NCBI GenBank assembly: GCA_040754495.1
Contig: JBFMCO010000046.1
Span: 1 to 61,134 of the forward strand
DNA: 61,134 nucleotides
Origin: Candidatus Micrarchaeota archaeon
Lineage (GTDB): Archaea > Micrarchaeota > Micrarchaeia > Anstonellales > Bilamarchaeaceae
Direction of reading: 5' to 3'
Positions 4,476 to 47,211 of this stretch are shown here, one piece after another; position 1 is the first letter of the stretch; each line of letters begins with the position of its first letter. The position numbers were made by a program, and so were the translations under genes. A model generated the notes under the pieces. It searched no databases. It worked only from the letters and a program-made list of their open reading frames with translations, and had not been told where the DNA came from.

Positions 4476-5327
4476 ATGATAGACCTGCACGCCCACACGA
4501 CCGCTTCCGACGGCACGCTCGGCTTCGATGAGCTTGTCACGGAAGCCGCCCGCGCGGGGCTGAGGGCAATAGCAATCACCGACCATGACAACGTGTGCAG
4601 CGCAGGCCTGATTACCGGCAACGAGCCGCTTGAGGTCATAGCCGGAGTGGAGCTCTCCGTATTCGACCGGGAAAGAGGCTATATGGACGTGCATGTTCTC
4701 GGCCTGTTCATAGACCCGAAACACAAAACCCTGAACTCAAAACTCGATACCCTCCAAGCGGAGCGCGAAGCCCAGAAGCGCGAGACCGTGGAGAAGCTGC
4801 GGGAACTCGGCTACGAAATCACATTCGAGGAGGTAAAGGCCGAGGCAAAAGGAGTCGCCGGCAGGCCGCACATCGCGAGAGTCCTGCTCAGGAAATACCC
4901 GAAAGAATTCGCCTCCCTCGCGTCCGTTTTCGACAAGCTCCTTGGCCGCGGAAAGCCTGCTTATATTGAGCGCGAGGCCGGATTCTCCCTCTCCGAGGCC
5001 GTCAGGCTCGTCCATGGCGCGGGCGGCCTCGCCGTCCTCGCGCACCCGTTCGTCTATCCGTACGATGCGGAAAAACTGCTCCGGGATTTCAAGGGGGCCG
5101 GGGGCGACGGCGTGGAGACATATTACGATTACATCAAGAATCGTCCTGAAGTCAAAACCACCAAAACCCAAAACTCAAAACTCACAACCCTCGCCAGGAA
5201 ACTGGCTGCCGGATGCGGCCTGCTGGAGTCCGGCGGGAGCGATTTCCACGGGGCGAACAAGGGCCAGGAGCTGGGGCAATTCGGCGCTCCGGATTGGATA
5301 TTGGATAGATTGAAGAAGGCGTTATGA
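4476..5327 (+). CDS. PHP-domain metal-dependent phosphoesterase (TrpH/YciV-like)
   Basis: DLHAHTTASDG, AITDHD, GRPHIA, LAHP and GGSDFHG. Confidence 0.9.
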   Translation: MIDLHAHTTASDGTLGFDELVTEAARAGLRAIAITDHDNVCSAGLITGNEPLEVIAGVELSVFDRERGYMDVHVLGLFIDPKHKTLNSKLDTLQAEREAQKRETVEKLRELGYEITFEEVKAEAKGVAGRPHIARVLLRKYPKEFASLASVFDKLLGRGKPAYIEREAGFSLSEAVRLVHGAGGLAVLAHPFVYPYDAEKLLRDFKGAGGDGVETYYDYIKNRPEVKTTKTQNSKLTTLARKLAAGCGLLESGGSDFHGANKGQELGQFGAPDWILDRLKKAL

Positions 5328-21736: not shown

Positions 21737-21778
21737 GCCCCCGGAACCTATTCAAAACCCAAAACCCATAACCAGCCC

Positions 21779-36144: not shown

Positions 36145-36450
36145 CTAGCTCAGGTTTATCTTGACGAACACGTTCGTCGGGACCTTTATCCTGAGAATCT
36201 GCTTTATCATCTTCTCTTCGCCCTCGACGTCGCAGAGGCGCTTGAAGACCCTCTTCTCCCAGTGCTCGTAGGTGTCGGTTCCGTCGCCGCAGGGCGTCCT
36301 CCTGCAGGAGATTTCGAGCTTCTTGCGCGGGAGCCTGACCGGGCCTATGAACTTCATGCTGAGGCTGTCCGATAGCGCCTTTATCTGGGCTACCACATTG
36401 TCCAGGGCCGCAGGGTCCTCTCCGCTGAGCTTGATTCTGACTTTTGTCAT
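36145..36450 (-). CDS. rps10: 30S ribosomal protein uS10
   Basis: KVRIKLSG, GPVRLP, RRTPCGDGTDTYEHWEKRVFKRL. Confidence 0.95.
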   Translation of the reverse strand: MTKVRIKLSGEDPAALDNVVAQIKALSDSLSMKFIGPVRLPRKKLEISCRRTPCGDGTDTYEHWEKRVFKRLCDVEGEEKMIKQILRIKVPTNVFVKINLS

Positions 36451-36563
36451 AAACGTTCACCGTAAGGATTTACCCCCTCTGAGAGAGTAAAATTCGCAGG
36501 GTAAATAGTAATGCCAAAGGTATTTAAAGTTGCTGACTGCCATTCCCGACGGAGGCAATCCGT

Positions 36564-37487
36564 ATGCAGCACGCGCTTTTCCTGAAGGATTTCGACTCGA
36601 AGTGGATTGAATCCGTTGTGGAGCTTGCGCTCGATATCAAGAAGAGCCCTGAAAAGTACTCGCAGGCGCTTTCGCGCAAGTCGCTCGCCATGATATTCCA
36701 GAAGTCGTCCACGCGGACGCGCATCTCGTTCGAGACCGGGATGACGAAGCTCGGCGGCCATGCAATCTTCATAGACTGGAGGACGACGCAGATAGGGCTC
36801 GGGGCGGTCGCGGACGAGGCCAAAGTCATCTCCCGCTACGTGGATGCCATCATGGTGCGCCCGATGCGCCATGCCACGGTGGCAGAGTTCGCGAAAGCCT
36901 CGCGCGTCCCCGTGATAAACGGGCTGTGCGAGAAGTACCATCCCTGCCAGGCGCTCGCGGACATCCTGACGATAAGGGAGAAGCTCGGGAAGCTGGAAGG
37001 GGCCAGGGTCGTCTATGTCGGCATAGGCAACAACGTCAGCAACTCCCTTTCGGTCGCCTGCGCGAAGGCAGGCTGCGACTTCACGCTCTGCGTGCCCGAG
37101 AAGGACCCGGACAGCCTTGATTCGGAGCAGCAGGAGATGCTCGACAAATCAGGCCATTACCGCGAGGAGCCGGACATAAAAAATGCGGTCAGGGGCGCGG
37201 ACATCCTCTACACGGACACCTGGGTGAACATGGAGTTCTTCAACGACCCGAAATTCGCGCAGGAAAAAGCCCGGCGCGAGAGGGTGTTCATGCCATACCA
37301 GCTCAACAAGGCGATGCTCGATCTGGCCGGCCCGCAGGCGCATTCGATGCACGACATGCCCGCGCACATCGGCTACGAAATCGACGAATACGCGCTCCGC
37401 GGGCCGCGCTCGCTCGCATTCGACCAGGCGGAGAATCGGATGTGGGCGCAGATGGCCCTGCTCATCAAGCTCCTTGGCAAAGGATAA
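36564..37487 (+). CDS. argF: Ornithine carbamoyltransferase
   Basis: FQKSSTRTRISF, PVINGL, HPCQALAD, GIGNNV, YTDTW and QAENR; the cluster also contains carAB. Confidence 0.88.
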   Translation: MQHALFLKDFDSKWIESVVELALDIKKSPEKYSQALSRKSLAMIFQKSSTRTRISFETGMTKLGGHAIFIDWRTTQIGLGAVADEAKVISRYVDAIMVRPMRHATVAEFAKASRVPVINGLCEKYHPCQALADILTIREKLGKLEGARVVYVGIGNNVSNSLSVACAKAGCDFTLCVPEKDPDSLDSEQQEMLDKSGHYREEPDIKNAVRGADILYTDTWVNMEFFNDPKFAQEKARRERVFMPYQLNKAMLDLAGPQAHSMHDMPAHIGYEIDEYALRGPRSLAFDQAENRMWAQMALLIKLLGKG

Positions 37488-37502
37488 GGAGGCAGACACG
37501 GG

Positions 37503-37550
37503 CGGTTTCCAGTCTCCCGTTTCCGGTTCGGGTTGCCCGTTTGCGGTTTT
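37503..37550. repeat. Degenerate 7-bp tandem array, about 7 units (T-rich orientation)
   Basis: CGGTTTC CAGTCTC CCGTTTC CGGTTC GGGTTGC CCGTTTG CGGTTTT. Confidence 0.8.
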
Positions 37551-37618
37551 CGTCGTCTGCCGAATCCTGTTCCAGAGATTTATATTCTTTCCCTGCGATT
37601 GTCTTCCGAGGTGGATGG

Positions 37619-38503
37619 ATGTTCGTAGCAGTATTGTCCGACAAGCCTGAGCTTCGCGAGGCGTTCTGCAAGTCCCTCGGCAAAGGGGAATCGGCCGGAG
37701 AGCTGGCCGTCTACACTGCGGAGCATGAAGGGAAGCGCATAACGCTCATAGACCCGGTCCAATACCCGGAGAAGGTCCAGCCTTTTCTCTACTCTCTCTC
37801 CATGGCCGATTACGTCGTGCTTTTGGTTGATGCGCTCACGCCGAAAATCGGGGAGATAATCGTGGCGGTGAATTCGCTCAAGCTTGATCGGGGCGTAATC
37901 GTCTCGAAATCGCCGCTTCCGCTTGCCGGCACGACGCTCGACAAATTCGACAAGGTGGCGGATAGCGAGGCTGCGAAAGGCAGGGTGCTGTCATTCCAGC
38001 GGGGCGAGCCCGGAGAGGCAGTGCTTGCGCTTGTCGACCGCACGGAGAACGTAAAAAGCATGGGCAATGTCGCCCACTGCGTCCTCAGGTCCGGAAAATT
38101 GAAGAAGTCGGACAAGGTGTTCCTGCTCCCGGAGAAGAAGGACGTCGAGGCCCGCAGCCTCATGCTGGATGGGAGCGAGGTCGAGGAGGTCTCCGCAGGC
38201 GCGCGCTTCTCGATGGCATACAAGGGCGAGCAGTTCGAGCGGGGCATAATCGTCCCCCTGCGCCACGAGCACGAGGTCGGCAACGTAGTAAATGGCCGAT
38301 TTCTCAGGAGCCCGTTCTTCAAGGACGAATTGAAGGGGAAAATCCACGCTTATGCCAACATGCAGTTCGTGGAGGGCCATCTTTCAGAGAACGACCTGAC
38401 GCTGAGCCAGCCGATTGCCTACGAGAAGGGCGAGCTCATCCTTGTCGTGGATGCCAGCAACCAGAAGCTCAGGATTGCGGGTGCGTTCCAGAGCAAGTGG
38501 TGA
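37619..38503 (+). CDS. EF-Tu/SelB-like protein with degenerate G domain
   Basis: The G-domain, beta-barrel, beta-barrel order is recognisable (ITLIDPVQYPEK, TPKIGEII, GNVAHCVLRSG.LK..DKV, ARSL, LRIAGAF). There is no canonical GxxxxGKS/T. Confidence 0.7.
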   Translation: MFVAVLSDKPELREAFCKSLGKGESAGELAVYTAEHEGKRITLIDPVQYPEKVQPFLYSLSMADYVVLLVDALTPKIGEIIVAVNSLKLDRGVIVSKSPLPLAGTTLDKFDKVADSEAAKGRVLSFQRGEPGEAVLALVDRTENVKSMGNVAHCVLRSGKLKKSDKVFLLPEKKDVEARSLMLDGSEVEEVSAGARFSMAYKGEQFERGIIVPLRHEHEVGNVVNGRFLRSPFFKDELKGKIHAYANMQFVEGHLSENDLTLSQPIAYEKGELILVVDASNQKLRIAGAFQSKW

Positions 38504-38513
38504 GTTGCGGGCG

Positions 38514-38541
38514 GAAACCGAAAACTGGAAACCGGAAACCC
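38514..38541. repeat. Degenerate 7-bp tandem array, 4 units
   Basis: GAAACCG AAAACTG GAAACCG GAAACCC. Confidence 0.8.
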
Positions 38542-38611
38542 CCCCGGCCCCACCGATACCACATCAGCAGTATTATAAACTCCGCCATGCCCTATAATAT
38601 TCTGATTCTTC

Positions 38612-39691
38612 ATGGGCAAAGACTTGCGAGCAGCATTAGTGTTGAAAGACGGCACCGTGCTGCAGGGCCTCGGTTTCGGCGCAAAGGCCGAGACGATGGG
38701 CGAGCTGGTCTTCAACACGTCCATGACGGGCTACCAGGAGGCCCTCACCGACCCGAGCTACGGCGGGCAGATCCTGCTCATGACCTACCCGCTTGTCGGC
38801 AATTACGGCACGAACGACAATGACCGGGAGAGCGGCAGAATCCACGCCTCGGGTTTCGTAATCCGGGAGCTGAGCGAGGATGCAGAGCACCGGGACTCGA
38901 AGCGCACGCTTGATTCCTTCCTGAAGGAGCACGGGATTCCGGGTATATCCGGCATAGACACCCGCTACGTCGTGAGGCGCATCCGCGACAAGGGGGTGAT
39001 GCCTGCGATTCTCGCGGTCTCGGACCGCGAAGCAGACCTCAACCCGAAAAAGCTGCTCGAGCGCCTGGCATTCGACTACTCGGCGATTGATTTCGTCTCG
39101 AAAGTAACTACGAAAGAGCCGAAGGTCTTCGGGAAGGGTGGAAAAAGAAAGCGCGTCGCGCTGATAGACTACGGCGTCAAGATGGGCATCGTCCGCCGCC
39201 TCGTGGCGCTCGGATGCGAGGTGCACCTGCTCCCGAGCTTCAGCACCTCTAAAGACGTCAAGGCAATCGAGCCGGACGGAATCCTGCTCTCGAACGGGCC
39301 GGGCGACCCGGCGATTCTCACGGGCGCGCACAAGGCTATACGCGAGCTTGAAGGCTACCGGCCGATTTTCGGCGTGTGCCTCGGGCACCAGCTCCTTGCC
39401 CACGCGTTCGGGGGCGGCACCTACAAGCTGAAGTTCGGCCACAGGGGCTCGAACCACGCGGTGATGGAGCTCAACACGAAAAAGATTGCGATAACCACCC
39501 AGAACCACGGGTTCGCGGTCGGGAAGATGCCAAAGGGATTCGAGCTGACGCATGTCAACGTCAACGACAGGAGCGTGGAGGGGATGAGCAGCGAAACAAA
39601 GCGGATATTCAGCGTCCAGTACCACCCCGAGGCGTCGCCAGGGCCGCACGATTCGTTCGGCCTGTTCGACAGGTTCATGAAAATGATGTGA
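38612..39691 (+). CDS. carA: Carbamoyl-phosphate synthase small subunit
   Basis: VFNTSMTGYQE, DPSYGGQ, GIDTR, SNGPGDP, GVCLGHQ and QYHPEASPGP. Confidence 0.97.
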   Translation: MGKDLRAALVLKDGTVLQGLGFGAKAETMGELVFNTSMTGYQEALTDPSYGGQILLMTYPLVGNYGTNDNDRESGRIHASGFVIRELSEDAEHRDSKRTLDSFLKEHGIPGISGIDTRYVVRRIRDKGVMPAILAVSDREADLNPKKLLERLAFDYSAIDFVSKVTTKEPKVFGKGGKRKRVALIDYGVKMGIVRRLVALGCEVHLLPSFSTSKDVKAIEPDGILLSNGPGDPAILTGAHKAIRELEGYRPIFGVCLGHQLLAHAFGGGTYKLKFGHRGSNHAVMELNTKKIAITTQNHGFAVGKMPKGFELTHVNVNDRSVEGMSSETKRIFSVQYHPEASPGPHDSFGLFDRFMKMM

Positions 39692-39701
39692 GAGTGATTT
39701 T

Positions 39702-40226
39702 ATGGCAGACATGAGCGAGGAGGAAGTTGTGAAGAAGGCCAACGAGGATGCGAACAACGTGAAATGCAGCTTCTGCGGCAACGAGGCTTACTGCGAGCCG
39801 TGCAAGAACGAGCCGGCGAAGATGGCGGGATTCGAGCACATGTGCTTTGAGTGCCACCAGCGCATGGGGCAGGTGCCCGAGAACGTGCGCGACAAGACGC
39901 ACCTGTGCATCCCGCCGGAGAAGCTGCAGGAGAACTTCGAGCGGTTCATGAACGACGTCACGCAGCGCGCTTTCGACGACCTCTGGAACGCGGAGAAGAA
40001 GAAGCTGAAGGAGATGTCGAGGCAGGAGCTTGCGCAGGCGTCGTTCTTCGAGGGCGCGAGCTTCATGTTCCACCTGATGCAGCGGATGTCCCAGCAGCCG
40101 GCAGCCGGTCCCCAGCCTCCGGTTTCGGGCAACCGGGAGCCGGAGACCGGAGAAACGAAGCCTGGGAACAGTCCACCGCGAGCCGAAGGCGAGCGCAGTG
40201 AACAAAAACGGGAAACCGCGGAGTGA
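39702..40226 (+). CDS. Hypothetical protein with CxxC/CxxC/CxxC cluster and a heptamer-encoded C-terminal tail
   Basis: CSFC...CEPC...CFECH; inserted between carA and carB; codon style is host-like. Confidence 0.7.
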   Translation: MADMSEEEVVKKANEDANNVKCSFCGNEAYCEPCKNEPAKMAGFEHMCFECHQRMGQVPENVRDKTHLCIPPEKLQENFERFMNDVTQRAFDDLWNAEKKKLKEMSRQELAQASFFEGASFMFHLMQRMSQQPAAGPQPPVSGNREPETGETKPGNSPPRAEGERSEQKRETAE

Positions 40227-43200
40227 AGCAGAAGTGAAAGACAAACCGAAGAAAGTCCTCGTCATCGGCTCGGGGCCGATAGTGATAGGCCAGTCCGCGG
40301 AGTTCGACTACTCCGGCGCGCAGGCATGCCGGGCGCTGCGCGAGGAGGGGATAACCGTGGTGCTTGCCAACTCGAACCCGGCCACCATCCAGACCGACAA
40401 GGACACCGCGGACATCGTCTATATCGAGCCCCTCACCGTCCCTGTGCTCGAGAAAATCATAGAGCGGGAGAAGCCGCAGGGCATCATCGCGACAATGGGC
40501 GGCCAGACTGCCCTGAACCTCGCGATGGAGCTCCACCGCAAGGGCATCCTCGCGAAGCACGGCGTGAGCTTCCTCGGGACCGGCGCGGAGGCGATAGACG
40601 CTGCCGAATCCAGGGAGCGCTTCAACGGCCTCATGCGGAAGCTCGGCATGCCGATTCTTCCCGGCAAGGTCGTGAACGACGTCGAAAGCGGTGTGGGGGC
40701 GGCGCGGGAAATCGGCTACCCGGTTATCGTGCGCCCGTCATTCACCCTCGGTGGGACCGGAGGGGGCACGGTCTACGGCGAGGAGGAGCTGCGGAAGCTC
40801 CTTGAGCTGGCCCTGCGCCTGAGCATGACCGGCGAGGCGCTTGTAGAGAAAAGCGCCATCGGCTGGGGCGAGTTCGAATACGAGGTGGTGCGGGACTCCT
40901 TCGGGAACGCGCAAATCATCTGCAACATGGAGAACATCGACCCGATGGGCGTACATACCGGCGAAAGCATAGTCATCGCGCCGTCCCAGACGCTCAGCGA
41001 CGCGGACCACCAGGTTTTGCGCGATGCTGCCCTGAAAATCGCGGACGGCATAGGAATCGAGGGCGGATGCAACGTTCAGTTCGCAATGGACCAGGATAGC
41101 GGCAATTTCACGGTAATCGAGGTCAACCCCCGCCTCTCGCGCTCATCCGCGCTCGCATCCAAGGCGACCGGCTGCCCCATCGCCAGGGTCGCGACCAAAA
41201 TCGCGCTCGGCCATCCGCTCCCGGAGATAAGGAATGCCATAACCGGCACGTCGGCCGCGTTCGAGCCGGCGCTGGATTACGTCGTAGTCAAGATTCCCCG
41301 CTGGCCCTTCGACAAGTTCCCGAAGACCTCGCGGGTAATCGGGACCCAGATGAAGAGTACCGGCGAGGTCATGGCCATCGGCAGGACGTTCCAGGAAGCC
41401 CTGAACAAGGCAATCCGGAGCCTCGAGATAAGGCTCCCGAAGCAGATAAACCCGGACGAGCACCTGTTCCCTCCGACAGACCTGCGCGCCTTCGCCATCT
41501 TAGATGCCCTGAGGCGCGGCAGGGGCGTGGAGGAGCTGCACAAAATCACAAGGATACACCGCTGGTTCCTGCGCCGCATGGAGCGCATCGTCGCCCTTGA
41601 GAAGCGCATCGCTTCCTCGAAGATGACAAAGGAACTCATGCTGGAAGCAAAGCGGGCGGGATTCCCGGACGCGCAGATTGCCGCCCTCACGAAAAGCGAC
41701 GAGATGTCCGTGCGCAAGGCGCGCAAAGCCTTCGGCATCCTCCCCACCTACAAGATAGTGGATTCCTGCGCAGGGGAGTTCGAGGCCATCACGCCGTATT
41801 ATTATTCGACTTACGAGACCGAGAATGAAGCCGCCCCTCAGCCGGAAACACGAAACGCGGAACTGGGAACCGGAAGCGGGAAACCGGGAACCGCCGAAGG
41901 GGGGCCTGAGCCGCAGAAGAAAATCGTGGTCATCGGCTCGGGGCCAATCCGCATCGGGCAGGGCATAGAATTCGACTACTGCTGCTCGCATGCGGCATTC
42001 GCCCTCCGCGACATGGGTTACCGGAGCATCATGGTCAACAACAACCCCGAAACGGTCAGCACGGACTTCGATTCCAGCGACCGCCTGTATTTCGAGCCCC
42101 TGACATTCGAGGACGTCATGAACATCGTGGAAAACGAGTCTCCCGAAGGCGTGATTGTCCAGCTCGGCGGCCAGACGAGCCTGAATCTCGCGCACAAGCT
42201 CGCGGATGCAGGGGTGAGGATACTTGGCACCGGCATCGAGGGCATAGACATAGCCGAGAACCGCGAGCGCTTCAGGGAGCTTGCGACAAGGCTCGGCATA
42301 CCGCAGCCCGAGAATGGCACTGCAACGAGCGAGGAGCAGGCGCTGGATGCCGCCTCCAGAATCGGCTACCCCGTAGTAGTGAGGCCGAGCTACGTGATTG
42401 CCGGGCGCGCGATGGAAATCGTGCGCAGCGACGAGGAGCTGCGCCGCTACATGCACGAAGCCGTGGAAGTGAGCGGGAAGAGGCCGGTGCTCATAGACCG
42501 CTACATAGACAACGCCATAGAGTGCGAAGTGGACGCTGTGAGCGACGGGACCGAGGTGCTGATAGGCGGGCTTATGGAGCACATCGAGCCAGCGGGCGTG
42601 CATTCCGGGGATGCGAACATCGTCCTTCCATCCATGCGCCTGACGGAGGCCGAAAAGGCCACAATAACCGGTTACACCGGGAAAATCTCCCAGGCGCTCG
42701 GCGTGGTAGGCTTCGTGAACATCCAGTTCGTGGTCAAGGACAAGGTCTACATCCTGGAAGCCAACCCCCGCGCGAGCAGGACCGTTCCCTTCGTCAGCAA
42801 GGCAATAGACGTGCAGCTCACGAAGCTGGCGGTAGCATCGATGCTCGGAAAGAGGCTCCCCAAAGTCAGGACCGAGCTGGACCACTTCGCCGTGAAAAGC
42901 GTGGTCTTCCCGTTCCTCAAGCTCCTCGGAACGGACATAAAGCTCGGGCCTGAGATGCGCAGCACGGGCGAGACGATGGGCATAGGGCGGACCTTCGAGA
43001 TGGCCTACTACAAGGCCCTTCTCGCGGCAGGCATCCGCCTCGAGGACGGAAAGGAGCATTGCGCTTTCATCAGCCTGCGGGACGAGGACAAGAAGGAAAT
43101 GCCCAAGCTCGCCGAGCTGCTCCGGAAGCTGGAATTCAGGATATACGGAACCATGGGAACCGTGGGCTCGGTGCCGGGTGCCATCCCGATTCCAAAAATA

Positions 43201-43440
43201 GGGCAGGGGCATCCGGACGCCGTGGAGCTGATAGAGTCCGGCACGGTTACGCTGGTCATAAACACGCCGACAAGGGGCGGGGCGGCGCACACGGACGGAT
43301 TCCGGATACGGCGCTCATCCATCCTGAGCGGCATCCCATGCATCACCAACATAAGCACGGCGCAGGAGCTTCTCAAGGCCATGCTCGAATTAAGGAAGAA
43401 GGAGCTGGACATCAGGCGGGCGGACGAATACTCGAAATGA
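40198..43440 (+). CDS. carB: Carbamoyl-phosphate synthase large subunit
   Basis: VIGSGPIVIGQSAEFDYSG, NSNPATIQTD, HTGES, EVNPRLSRSS, a second half starting IGSGPIRIGQGIEFDY, EANPRASRT and an MGS domain. Confidence 0.97.
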   Translation: MNKNGKPRSEAEVKDKPKKVLVIGSGPIVIGQSAEFDYSGAQACRALREEGITVVLANSNPATIQTDKDTADIVYIEPLTVPVLEKIIEREKPQGIIATMGGQTALNLAMELHRKGILAKHGVSFLGTGAEAIDAAESRERFNGLMRKLGMPILPGKVVNDVESGVGAAREIGYPVIVRPSFTLGGTGGGTVYGEEELRKLLELALRLSMTGEALVEKSAIGWGEFEYEVVRDSFGNAQIICNMENIDPMGVHTGESIVIAPSQTLSDADHQVLRDAALKIADGIGIEGGCNVQFAMDQDSGNFTVIEVNPRLSRSSALASKATGCPIARVATKIALGHPLPEIRNAITGTSAAFEPALDYVVVKIPRWPFDKFPKTSRVIGTQMKSTGEVMAIGRTFQEALNKAIRSLEIRLPKQINPDEHLFPPTDLRAFAILDALRRGRGVEELHKITRIHRWFLRRMERIVALEKRIASSKMTKELMLEAKRAGFPDAQIAALTKSDEMSVRKARKAFGILPTYKIVDSCAGEFEAITPYYYSTYETENEAAPQPETRNAELGTGSGKPGTAEGGPEPQKKIVVIGSGPIRIGQGIEFDYCCSHAAFALRDMGYRSIMVNNNPETVSTDFDSSDRLYFEPLTFEDVMNIVENESPEGVIVQLGGQTSLNLAHKLADAGVRILGTGIEGIDIAENRERFRELATRLGIPQPENGTATSEEQALDAASRIGYPVVVRPSYVIAGRAMEIVRSDEELRRYMHEAVEVSGKRPVLIDRYIDNAIECEVDAVSDGTEVLIGGLMEHIEPAGVHSGDANIVLPSMRLTEAEKATITGYTGKISQALGVVGFVNIQFVVKDKVYILEANPRASRTVPFVSKAIDVQLTKLAVASMLGKRLPKVRTELDHFAVKSVVFPFLKLLGTDIKLGPEMRSTGETMGIGRTFEMAYYKALLAAGIRLEDGKEHCAFISLRDEDKKEMPKLAELLRKLEFRIYGTMGTVGSVPGAIPIPKIGQGHPDAVELIESGTVTLVINTPTRGGAAHTDGFRIRRSSILSGIPCITNISTAQELLKAMLELRKKELDIRRADEYSK

Positions 43441-47117: not shown

Positions 47118-47211
47118 CAGTCTCCTGCACCCGGTTCCCGGCATCCTGTCATGGGTTTCCGGTTTTGTGTTCCGCGTCCCGACAAAACCGGGAACCGGAG
47201 ACCGGAAACCA
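47118..47211. repeat. Head-to-head 7-bp arrays forming an inverted repeat/hairpin
   Basis: A T-rich arm (GGGTTTC CGGTTTT GTGTTCC) is followed by an A-rich arm (AAAACCG GGAACCG GAGACCG GAAACCA). 47154-47166 pairs with 47184-47196 at 12 of 13 positions. Confidence 0.8.

Follow-up and report, generated by a model that had tools for sequence, protein, structure and literature searches.

In the genome of a Candidatus Micrarchaeota archaeon, an EF-Tu-like gene (hereafter, the EF-like gene) lies between argF and carA and is enclosed by two short arrays of tandem heptamers, T-rich upstream and A-rich downstream, that are inverted with respect to each other. The question raised by this locus was whether the two arrays delimit a cassette or whether the bracket around the gene has a more general origin. 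The locus was analyzed within a stretch of 61,134 nucleotides (nt), positions 1 to 61,134 of the forward strand of contig JBFMCO010000046.1 (assembly GCA_040754495.1), which is referred to as the window, and within the whole genome (G000; 1.63 Mb, 59.5% G+C, 72 contigs, 80% complete). The sequencing runs holding this genome were groundwater metagenomes only. The results indicated that the bracket is very probably the coincidence of two independent members of a dispersed, fast-turnover family of 7-nt tandem repeats, and the inverted arrays do not enclose a genuine functional or mobile cassette.

The upstream array (37502-37571) was a degenerate series of GGTTTCC units (T-type; about 7-9 units, scan score 57) located in the spacer from the argF stop codon to the promoter of the EF-like gene, and its T-tracts reached only T3-T4. 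The downstream array (38511-38542) consisted of about 4 GGAAACC units followed by a run of C (A-type; scan score 38) and occupied the spacer from the EF-like stop codon to the carA promoter. It was also matched by Tandem Repeats Finder (TRF) at 38512-38540, with a period of 7, 4.1 copies and the unit CGGAAAC. The scores were obtained in a wraparound alignment scan with the unit SSTTTSS, in which arrays scoring at least 30 were counted. By direct reading, CGGTTTCCAGT (37503-37513) and ACTGGAAACCG (38524-38534) were exact reverse complements. The inverted match was found by a repeat search to comprise arms of 29 nt (37500-37528 and 38516-38544), 83% complementary and 987 nt apart, with a second register of 23 nt at 87% (37503-37525 and 38512-38534), and the upstream array supplied the arms of the inverted repeats I1-I3. 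A previous reading of this DNA made from its letters alone (the sequence-only reading) had described exact inverted 11-mers on the two sides of the gene and an A-rich array some 10 bp past its stop codon. Both descriptions were confirmed, the first growing to the 29-nt match and the second agreeing with a stop codon at 38501-38503 and an array from 38511.

The match between the two arrays was far above chance for random sequence, yet unremarkable inside this genome, in which every T-type array can pair with every A-type array. The duplex predicted for the T-type array 37502-37571 with the A-type array 38511-38542 had an energy of -44.3 kcal/mol. When duplex energies were compared across the genome, 56% of all A-type arrays paired with the upstream array equally well or better, and the same was true of 22% of the T-type arrays with respect to the downstream array. 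The downstream array was no better a partner than the median genomic array, so that no specific complementarity was found. The complementarity thus belongs to the repeat family and not to the pair that flanks the EF-like gene.

The size of this family was evident from the scan of the whole genome, in which 209 (GGTTTCC)n/(GGAAACC)n arrays scored at least 30, compared with 7 in an order-4 Markov simulation. TRF reported 167 period-7 arrays, with AAACCGG-type units dominant, and the units counted within the arrays included GGTTTCC (97), GGTTTCG (50) and CGTTTCC (23). The exact pattern GTTTCCVGTTTC occurred 72 times in the genome and its reversed control not once, and its count across same-genus genomes was patchy, ranging from 0 to 41. 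About 13 arrays of the family were present in the window. No conserved positions were detected in the flanks of 107 arrays and, therefore, the arrays are not parts of a larger element with fixed ends. Intergenic DNA, roughly 12-18% of the genome, contained 53% of the arrays. Their orientation relative to the flanking genes was unbiased (13 A-type and 12 T-type in ++ spacers; 16 and 18, respectively, in -- spacers), and convergent, tandem and divergent spacers were equally occupied, at about 6-7% each. Two other search methods were discarded in favor of the wraparound scan: nhmmer, queried with (GGTTTCC)x5, lacked sensitivity, giving 78 matches and missing the upstream array, and a tract-chaining regular expression also missed this degenerate array. 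Additionally, a second heptamer unit, CCGGCAT/GGATGCC (TRF unit ATCCGGC, 9 arrays), was often interleaved with the GGTTTCC units, the apparent common denominator of both being a CCGG core at 3-nt spacing. A GGGTTTT/CCAAAAC variant was present too, for example at 5149-5190 and 21753-21773 of the window.

With so many arrays, genes with an array on each side are to be found by chance alone. Arrays were carried by 85 of the 1487 spacers, and independence predicts 4.6 genes flanked on both sides; 7 such genes were found in addition to the EF-like gene, a number close to this expectation (Poisson P about 0.1) and with mixed orientations. Among array pairs separated by 400-2500 nt, the order was T-type then A-type in 10, A-type then T-type in 16, two A-types in 11 and two T-types in 5. 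Since array orientation is random, neighboring arrays are inverted about half of the time. In the sequence-only reading, inverted bracketing at no more than the chance frequency was to count against a role of the arrays, and the genome search for bracketed genes returned only the chance level (8 against 4.6).

The gene order at the locus and the arrays had different histories. The order mut7-C gene, argF, EF-like gene, carA, Zn-finger open reading frame (ORF) and carB was kept in 12-13 species, whose EF-like proteins were 61-85% identical to the one encoded here. No array followed the EF-like gene in any of these 12-13 syntenic species, and the array was absent from the 11 orthologous spacers between the EF-like gene and carA that were examined. 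In the spacer between argF and the EF-like gene, a T-type array was present in relatives only at the loci L026, L031 and, in a short form, L029. None of the at least 12 species with the EF-like gene between argF and carA had both arrays, and most were without either. Differences were also observed in contigs of a closely related groundwater strain, one of which showed scattered deletions of about 18 nt inside the T-type array. Another contig was about 96% identical to the window over 38285-38505; the match ended at 38505 and resumed exactly at 38563, where the conserved carA promoter motif begins. The segment 38506-38562 is skipped and, therefore, this strain lacks the A-type array segment or carries another sequence in its place. 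The arrays are thus far younger than the gene order, which is kept in array-free species, whereas the arrays differ even between strains. The sequence-only reading had also named a gene order conserved in array-free relatives as evidence against its proposal, and the synteny was indeed conserved in relatives whose EF-like gene is in no case followed, and in most cases not preceded, by an array.

The turnover of the family was also visible inside carB. A family array (41842-41902, + strand, scan score 54.5) formed an in-frame insertion in the linker that joins the two CarB halves. The 23 residues that it adds were found neither in 9 orthologous CarB proteins nor in the aligned DNA. As this insert shows, arrays arise de novo. 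The CarB encoded at L026 contained a different insert of 18 residues at another site, near the C-terminal domain. Rapid gain, loss and length change of arrays were documented by the strain indels, the CarB insert and the pattern counts of 0 to 41. Within called coding sequence, strictly defined, arrays were A-type in sense in 32 cases and T-type in 6, and at least 2 of these 6 were miscalled ORFs. Only the hydrophilic reading of the arrays (PETGNRKP-like) is tolerated inside proteins. Furthermore, an A-type array formed the C-terminal tail of the Zn-finger ORF, overlapping the carB start (40126-40253), and the junction between these two genes was also array-bearing in L021, L026 and L029.

The junction between argF and carA proved to be variable in its own right. 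In at least seven same-genus genomes (G023, G010, G018, G024, G005, G015 and G019) argF abutted carA within a few bases, and in those seven the EF-like gene was on another contig or not found. The EF-like gene thus sits in a variable slot, since argF directly abuts carA in these genomes. On the tree of the EF-like protein, the label "between argF and carA" required at least 3-4 changes. These comparisons support the view that the EF-like gene is, in an evolutionary sense, an interloper in the argF-carA junction, with a labile position, and the proposal that it is foreign to this neighborhood was borne out by the relatives with argF directly beside carA. The slot also held other material. Where the EF-like gene occupies the slot, unrelated small genes were found between it and carA that encode DUF1697 (L025, and two copies in L034), DUF4365 (L021) and an ankyrin-repeat protein (L041), as well as further ORFs without an assigned family (variable-slot loci L021, L022, L024, L025, L027, L030, L034 and L041). 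At L030, a further ORF separated argF from the EF-like gene. The argF-carA junction is accordingly a permissive variable slot, with the arrays as one more filler.

Taken as a coincidence of two family members, the bracket would have formed in the following way. Arrays would arise by insertion or expansion in unconstrained DNA, which at this locus would be the spacers between a stop codon and the next conserved TATA-type promoter. The EF-like gene, with its own promoter, would have entered the argF-carA slot long before the arrays existed. The arrays would be nearly neutral, and each gene would be transcribed from its own promoter. Several points weigh against this reading. In three or four species, the spacer that separates argF from the EF-like gene holds a T-type array, and this shared array could mean a local function, for example in argF termination, instead of a coincidence or a hotspot. 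No RNA run was listed for the organism, and the case against pairing or processing at the RNA level is accordingly indirect. Moreover, the genome-wide spacer and bracketing statistics rest on crude ORF-based gene calls of our own, and the genome behind them is 80% complete and divided into 72 contigs. In an alternative explanation, the arrays are boundary elements, the T-type array serving as an archaeal oligo-T terminator after argF and the A-type array blocking antisense or read-through transcription, so that the EF-like gene is insulated. Runs of T terminate archaeal RNA polymerase, and the T-type array stands in sense orientation immediately after the argF stop codon, as do the similar arrays of L026, L031 and (short) L029 at the same place. 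Such a role is nonetheless unlikely. Across the genome there was no sense-strand T preference downstream of genes, as would be expected of archaeal oligo-T terminators; divergent spacers, which need no terminator, carried arrays no less often than convergent spacers; the T-tracts do not exceed T3-T4; in-frame arrays are found inside proteins as well; and the downstream array is A-type in sense and unique to this genome.

The sequence-only reading had offered two further explanations, and neither was supported. In one of them, the arrays pair in a polycistronic argF-to-carB RNA and loop out the EF-like cassette of about 1 kb, as a processing signal similar to that of an intervening sequence. 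The complementarity of the arrays, with its predicted duplex of -44.3 kcal/mol, and the location of all five genes on one strand are in agreement with it. Nevertheless, this mechanism is highly improbable, given that the complementarity is generic (equaled or exceeded by 56% of the other A-type arrays), that the flanks are unconserved at orthologous loci, both arrays occurring together in no relative with the same gene order, and that the A-type segment is missing or replaced in the close strain. Furthermore, conserved TATA-type motifs precede both the EF-like gene and carA, an Rfam search of 36400-40300 at E ≤ 1 gave no family matches, and no bulge-helix-bulge or other processing motif was seen. 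In the other explanation, a mobile cassette brought the EF-like gene into the argF-carA junction, and the arrays are its terminal inverted repeats or the scars of its insertion. The at least seven same-genus genomes with argF beside carA, the at least 3-4 changes of position on the EF-like tree and the unrelated small genes that fill the slot in relatives would fit a mobile gene. The inverted repeats, however, do not travel with the cargo (at least 12 species): the insertion is old and common to array-free species with EF-like proteins 61-85% identical, the arrays differ even between strains, and EF-like genes located outside the cluster in other species are not flanked by arrays. In addition, the flanks of the arrays lack conserved element ends, and searches of the genome (80% complete) found neither a Y1 transposase nor a reverse transcriptase. 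There is thus very little likelihood that the arrays record how the gene was inserted.

A strict order was observed when two arrays were closely adjacent. Among arrays at most 60 nt apart in this genome, the T-type preceded the A-type in 15 cases and the reverse order did not occur; with a looser threshold the ratio was 31:1, the sole exception being a spurious purine-rich match. The close pairs included one at 47131-47210 of the window and others on contigs C14, C16, C28, C31, C33, C51 and C66. A 400-kb sample of G010 gave the same order in 4 of 4 pairs (loci L079-L098). The 434 kb of loci scanned from other species contained no adjacent T/A pairs and are hence uninformative on polarity. This T-first order (19:0) is a new observation. 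Because T-then-A reads the same on both strands, the polarity is a genuine feature of the structure and does not depend on the strand chosen. Complementarity between the two arms of a pair did not exceed that with arms from elsewhere in the genome (mean rank 8.1, compared with 7.0 expected), a result that argues against both recent fold-back copying and selection for a specific hairpin. Fold-back copying was accordingly rejected as the origin of the paired arrays, since partner arms did not rise above random combinations of T-type and A-type arms. Each class of spacer (tandem, convergent or divergent) had about the share of close pairs expected from its own frequency, which is evidence against a role in termination.

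One speculative origin of this polarity, rated as rather unlikely, is that the heptamer arrays are footprints of a polar process at DNA ends, in which GGTTTCC-type repeats would be added independently to both 3' ends of a break or insertion site that are then joined. This would amount to a repair mode resembling telomere healing or polymerase reiteration in Micrarchaeota. Single arrays would result from one-sided events, and within proteins selection would permit only the hydrophilic (A-sense) reading. The low rating was given because no enzyme could be tied to array formation. RVT_1 (reverse transcriptase) and Y1_Tnp were not found in this genome (80% complete), and Prim-Pol was not found either; a Y-family polymerase was present. 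PolX was rejected as a partner enzyme, as it occurred in the two most array-rich genomes, G000 and G010, but also in array-poor ones, and it was not found in the array-bearing genomes G006, G012, G003 and G022. A C5 DNA methylase, considered on account of the CCGG core, was likewise set aside, its presence showing no correlation with array abundance.

Short repeats that can form hairpins and are spread through genomes are known from Rickettsia palindromic elements (RPEs) and from repetitive extragenic palindromes and bacterial interspersed mosaic elements (REP/BIME), and such repeats can also be inserted in frame in conserved proteins. Both RPEs and REPs have a defined sequence and a fixed length, and REPs have a partner Y1 transposase. 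The Micrarchaeota arrays differ from them in being tandem heptamers of variable length, with no conserved ends and no Y1 transposase found. The closest parallels were heptamer repeats of bacteria. Rehm et al. (2015; PMC4692102) described the GGGNATC-type repeats of Xanthomonas and Nostoc as 7-nt units, about 4 per array and in hundreds of copies, with a non-coding excess, a location near stop codons or starts and a variable number of units, all features similar to those of the present family. The GGGNATC-type repeats are G-rich and quadruplex-forming, have strand and position preferences and are under-represented between divergent ORFs. In the Micrarchaeota arrays, by contrast, the core is CCGG, the tracts are T3/A3 and G-tracts are absent. 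These arrays show no preference for orientation or spacer type, are frequently arranged as T-first inverted pairs, are found in frame in proteins and belong to an archaeal host of the DPANN group. The TAACTGA repeats of Beggiatoaceae (MacGregor, 2015; PMC4679880) are also abundant intergenic heptamers with a patchy phylogenetic distribution; they are nearly all direct (169 direct sets and one indirect), and a post-transcriptional regulatory role has been proposed for them. The Micrarchaeota family differs from them in that inverted pairs are common and there is no orientation relative to genes. A literature search on tandem or intergenic repeats of Micrarchaeota and on archaeal heptanucleotide repeats returned nothing relevant. 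The family is an archaeal variant of these bacterial heptamer repeats, which are known but still poorly understood.

As this locus shows, a conspicuous pair of inverted arrays on the two sides of a gene can be a by-product of a genome-wide repeat family and, therefore, should not be read as a cassette boundary in these genomes. The family turns over between strains and enters essential enzymes such as CarB in frame, and its strict T-first polarity constrains how the arrays are made.

The enclosed protein was found to resemble MM1309 of Methanosarcina mazei, whose structure (PDB 3WNB) is entitled "EF-Pyl" in its PDB entry. A single-sequence search of PDB matched 3wnb with an E-value of 2.9e-14, and a profile of 38 sequences matched it with 3.8e-43 over residues 2-281, the next match being archaeal SelB (1.7e-24). 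A first structure prediction from 13 sequences was poor in domains 2 and 3 (predicted local distance difference test, pLDDT, 54) and was replaced by an AlphaFold model from the 38-sequence alignment (pLDDT 93; predicted template modeling score, pTM, 0.90). Foldseek ranked 3WNB first (E 9e-22, TM 0.81), followed by SelB and then by EF-Tu and aIF2-gamma. Full-length similarity to the three-domain EF-Tu/SelB fold was thereby found, and the resemblance to MM1309/SelB-like factors noticed in the sequence-only reading held in both the profile and the structural comparison. MM1309 (Yanagisawa et al., 2015; PMC4329189) has the same three EF-Tu/SelB-like domains in a closed arrangement, and shares with the EF-like protein the P-loop Arg and the Tyr that replaces the catalytic His. 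It differs in length (370 aa in the 3WNB chain, 294 aa in the EF-like protein) and in its nucleotide-binding site. MM1309 binds GTP via the P-loop Gly7-Thr15, with Arg14 replacing Lys, and its Asp103 recognizes guanine (PMC4329189). The P-loop and the Arg101/Asp103 guanine-binding segment are kept in MM1309 and lost in the EF-like protein: the P-loop position of the latter reads SDKPELRE, invariant in 13 orthologues, with both glycines and the Thr/Ser replaced, and the counterpart of the Arg101/Asp103 segment is missing from the profile alignment. A functional P-loop (GxxxxG[K/R][S/T]) with the guanine-specificity Asp was consequently not found in this protein, and the GxxxxGK motif was also absent from more distant Micrarchaeota homologues. 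Because of these losses, GTP binding by the EF-like protein is doubtful, and its sequence suggests that it is probably a pseudo-GTPase with an MM1309-like fold. Binding of Cys-tRNA(Cys) has been reported for MM1309 only (PMC4329189); by analogy, the EF-like protein may act as a chaperone of an aminoacyl-tRNA. The EF-like gene was present in 25 of the 41 related genomes searched, common and not universal, so that an MM1309/SelB-like factor apparently devoid of GTP binding is conserved in many, not all, of the Micrarchaeota genomes searched.

Regarding the layout of the locus, argF, the EF-like gene, carA, the Zn-finger ORF and carB were all on the + strand. The argF gene (36564-37487) encodes an ornithine carbamoyltransferase of 307 aa (Pfam OTCace_N 9e-44, OTCace 5e-39). 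The EF-like gene (37619-38503; 294 aa, MM1309/aSelB-like fold with a degenerate nucleotide-binding site) starts at ATG 37619 and ends with the stop codon TGA at 38501-38503. Its longest ORF would begin at GTG 37442; the ATG was taken as the start because the alignments of 12 orthologues begin at residue 1, and all of these genes are preceded by a GGTGG-type ribosome-binding site. It is followed by carA (38612-39691), for the small chain of carbamoyl-phosphate synthase (Pfam CPSase_sm_chain 3e-52, GATase 3e-49), by the small Zn-finger-type ORF (39702-40226; ORF call only) and by carB (40198-43440), with large-chain domains of carbamoyl-phosphate synthase. An in-frame TAG was observed in one carA orthologue (L067; G005:C10:18383-19444), which could reflect a pseudogene, a sequencing error or recoding.

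Both arrays sit precisely in the non-conserved DNA that extends from a stop codon to a promoter-like motif. The element of the EF-like gene (37569-37587, + strand), a cross-species motif, consists of GTTCCAGAG and a TTTATAT TATA-like box, and in aligned spacers the motif GTTCCAGAGGTTTTTAT precedes the EF-like orthologue in L022, L026, L027, L029, L030 and L031. The carA element (38563-38586, + strand), ATCAGCAGTATTATAAACTCCGCC, is nearly identical in L026, L029, L030 and L053, with ATCAGCAGTATTAAAAACTCCGCC as the conserved motif before carA in the aligned spacers. From what is known of archaeal TATA boxes and B recognition elements (BRE), both are considered putative promoters. Additionally, the carA leader (38587-38611), TATAA-GATTCTGATTCTTC directly before the ATG, was nearly invariant in L026, L029, L030 and L053, although the rest of the spacer differs between these species, and may serve in the regulation of the arginine/pyrimidine pathway.

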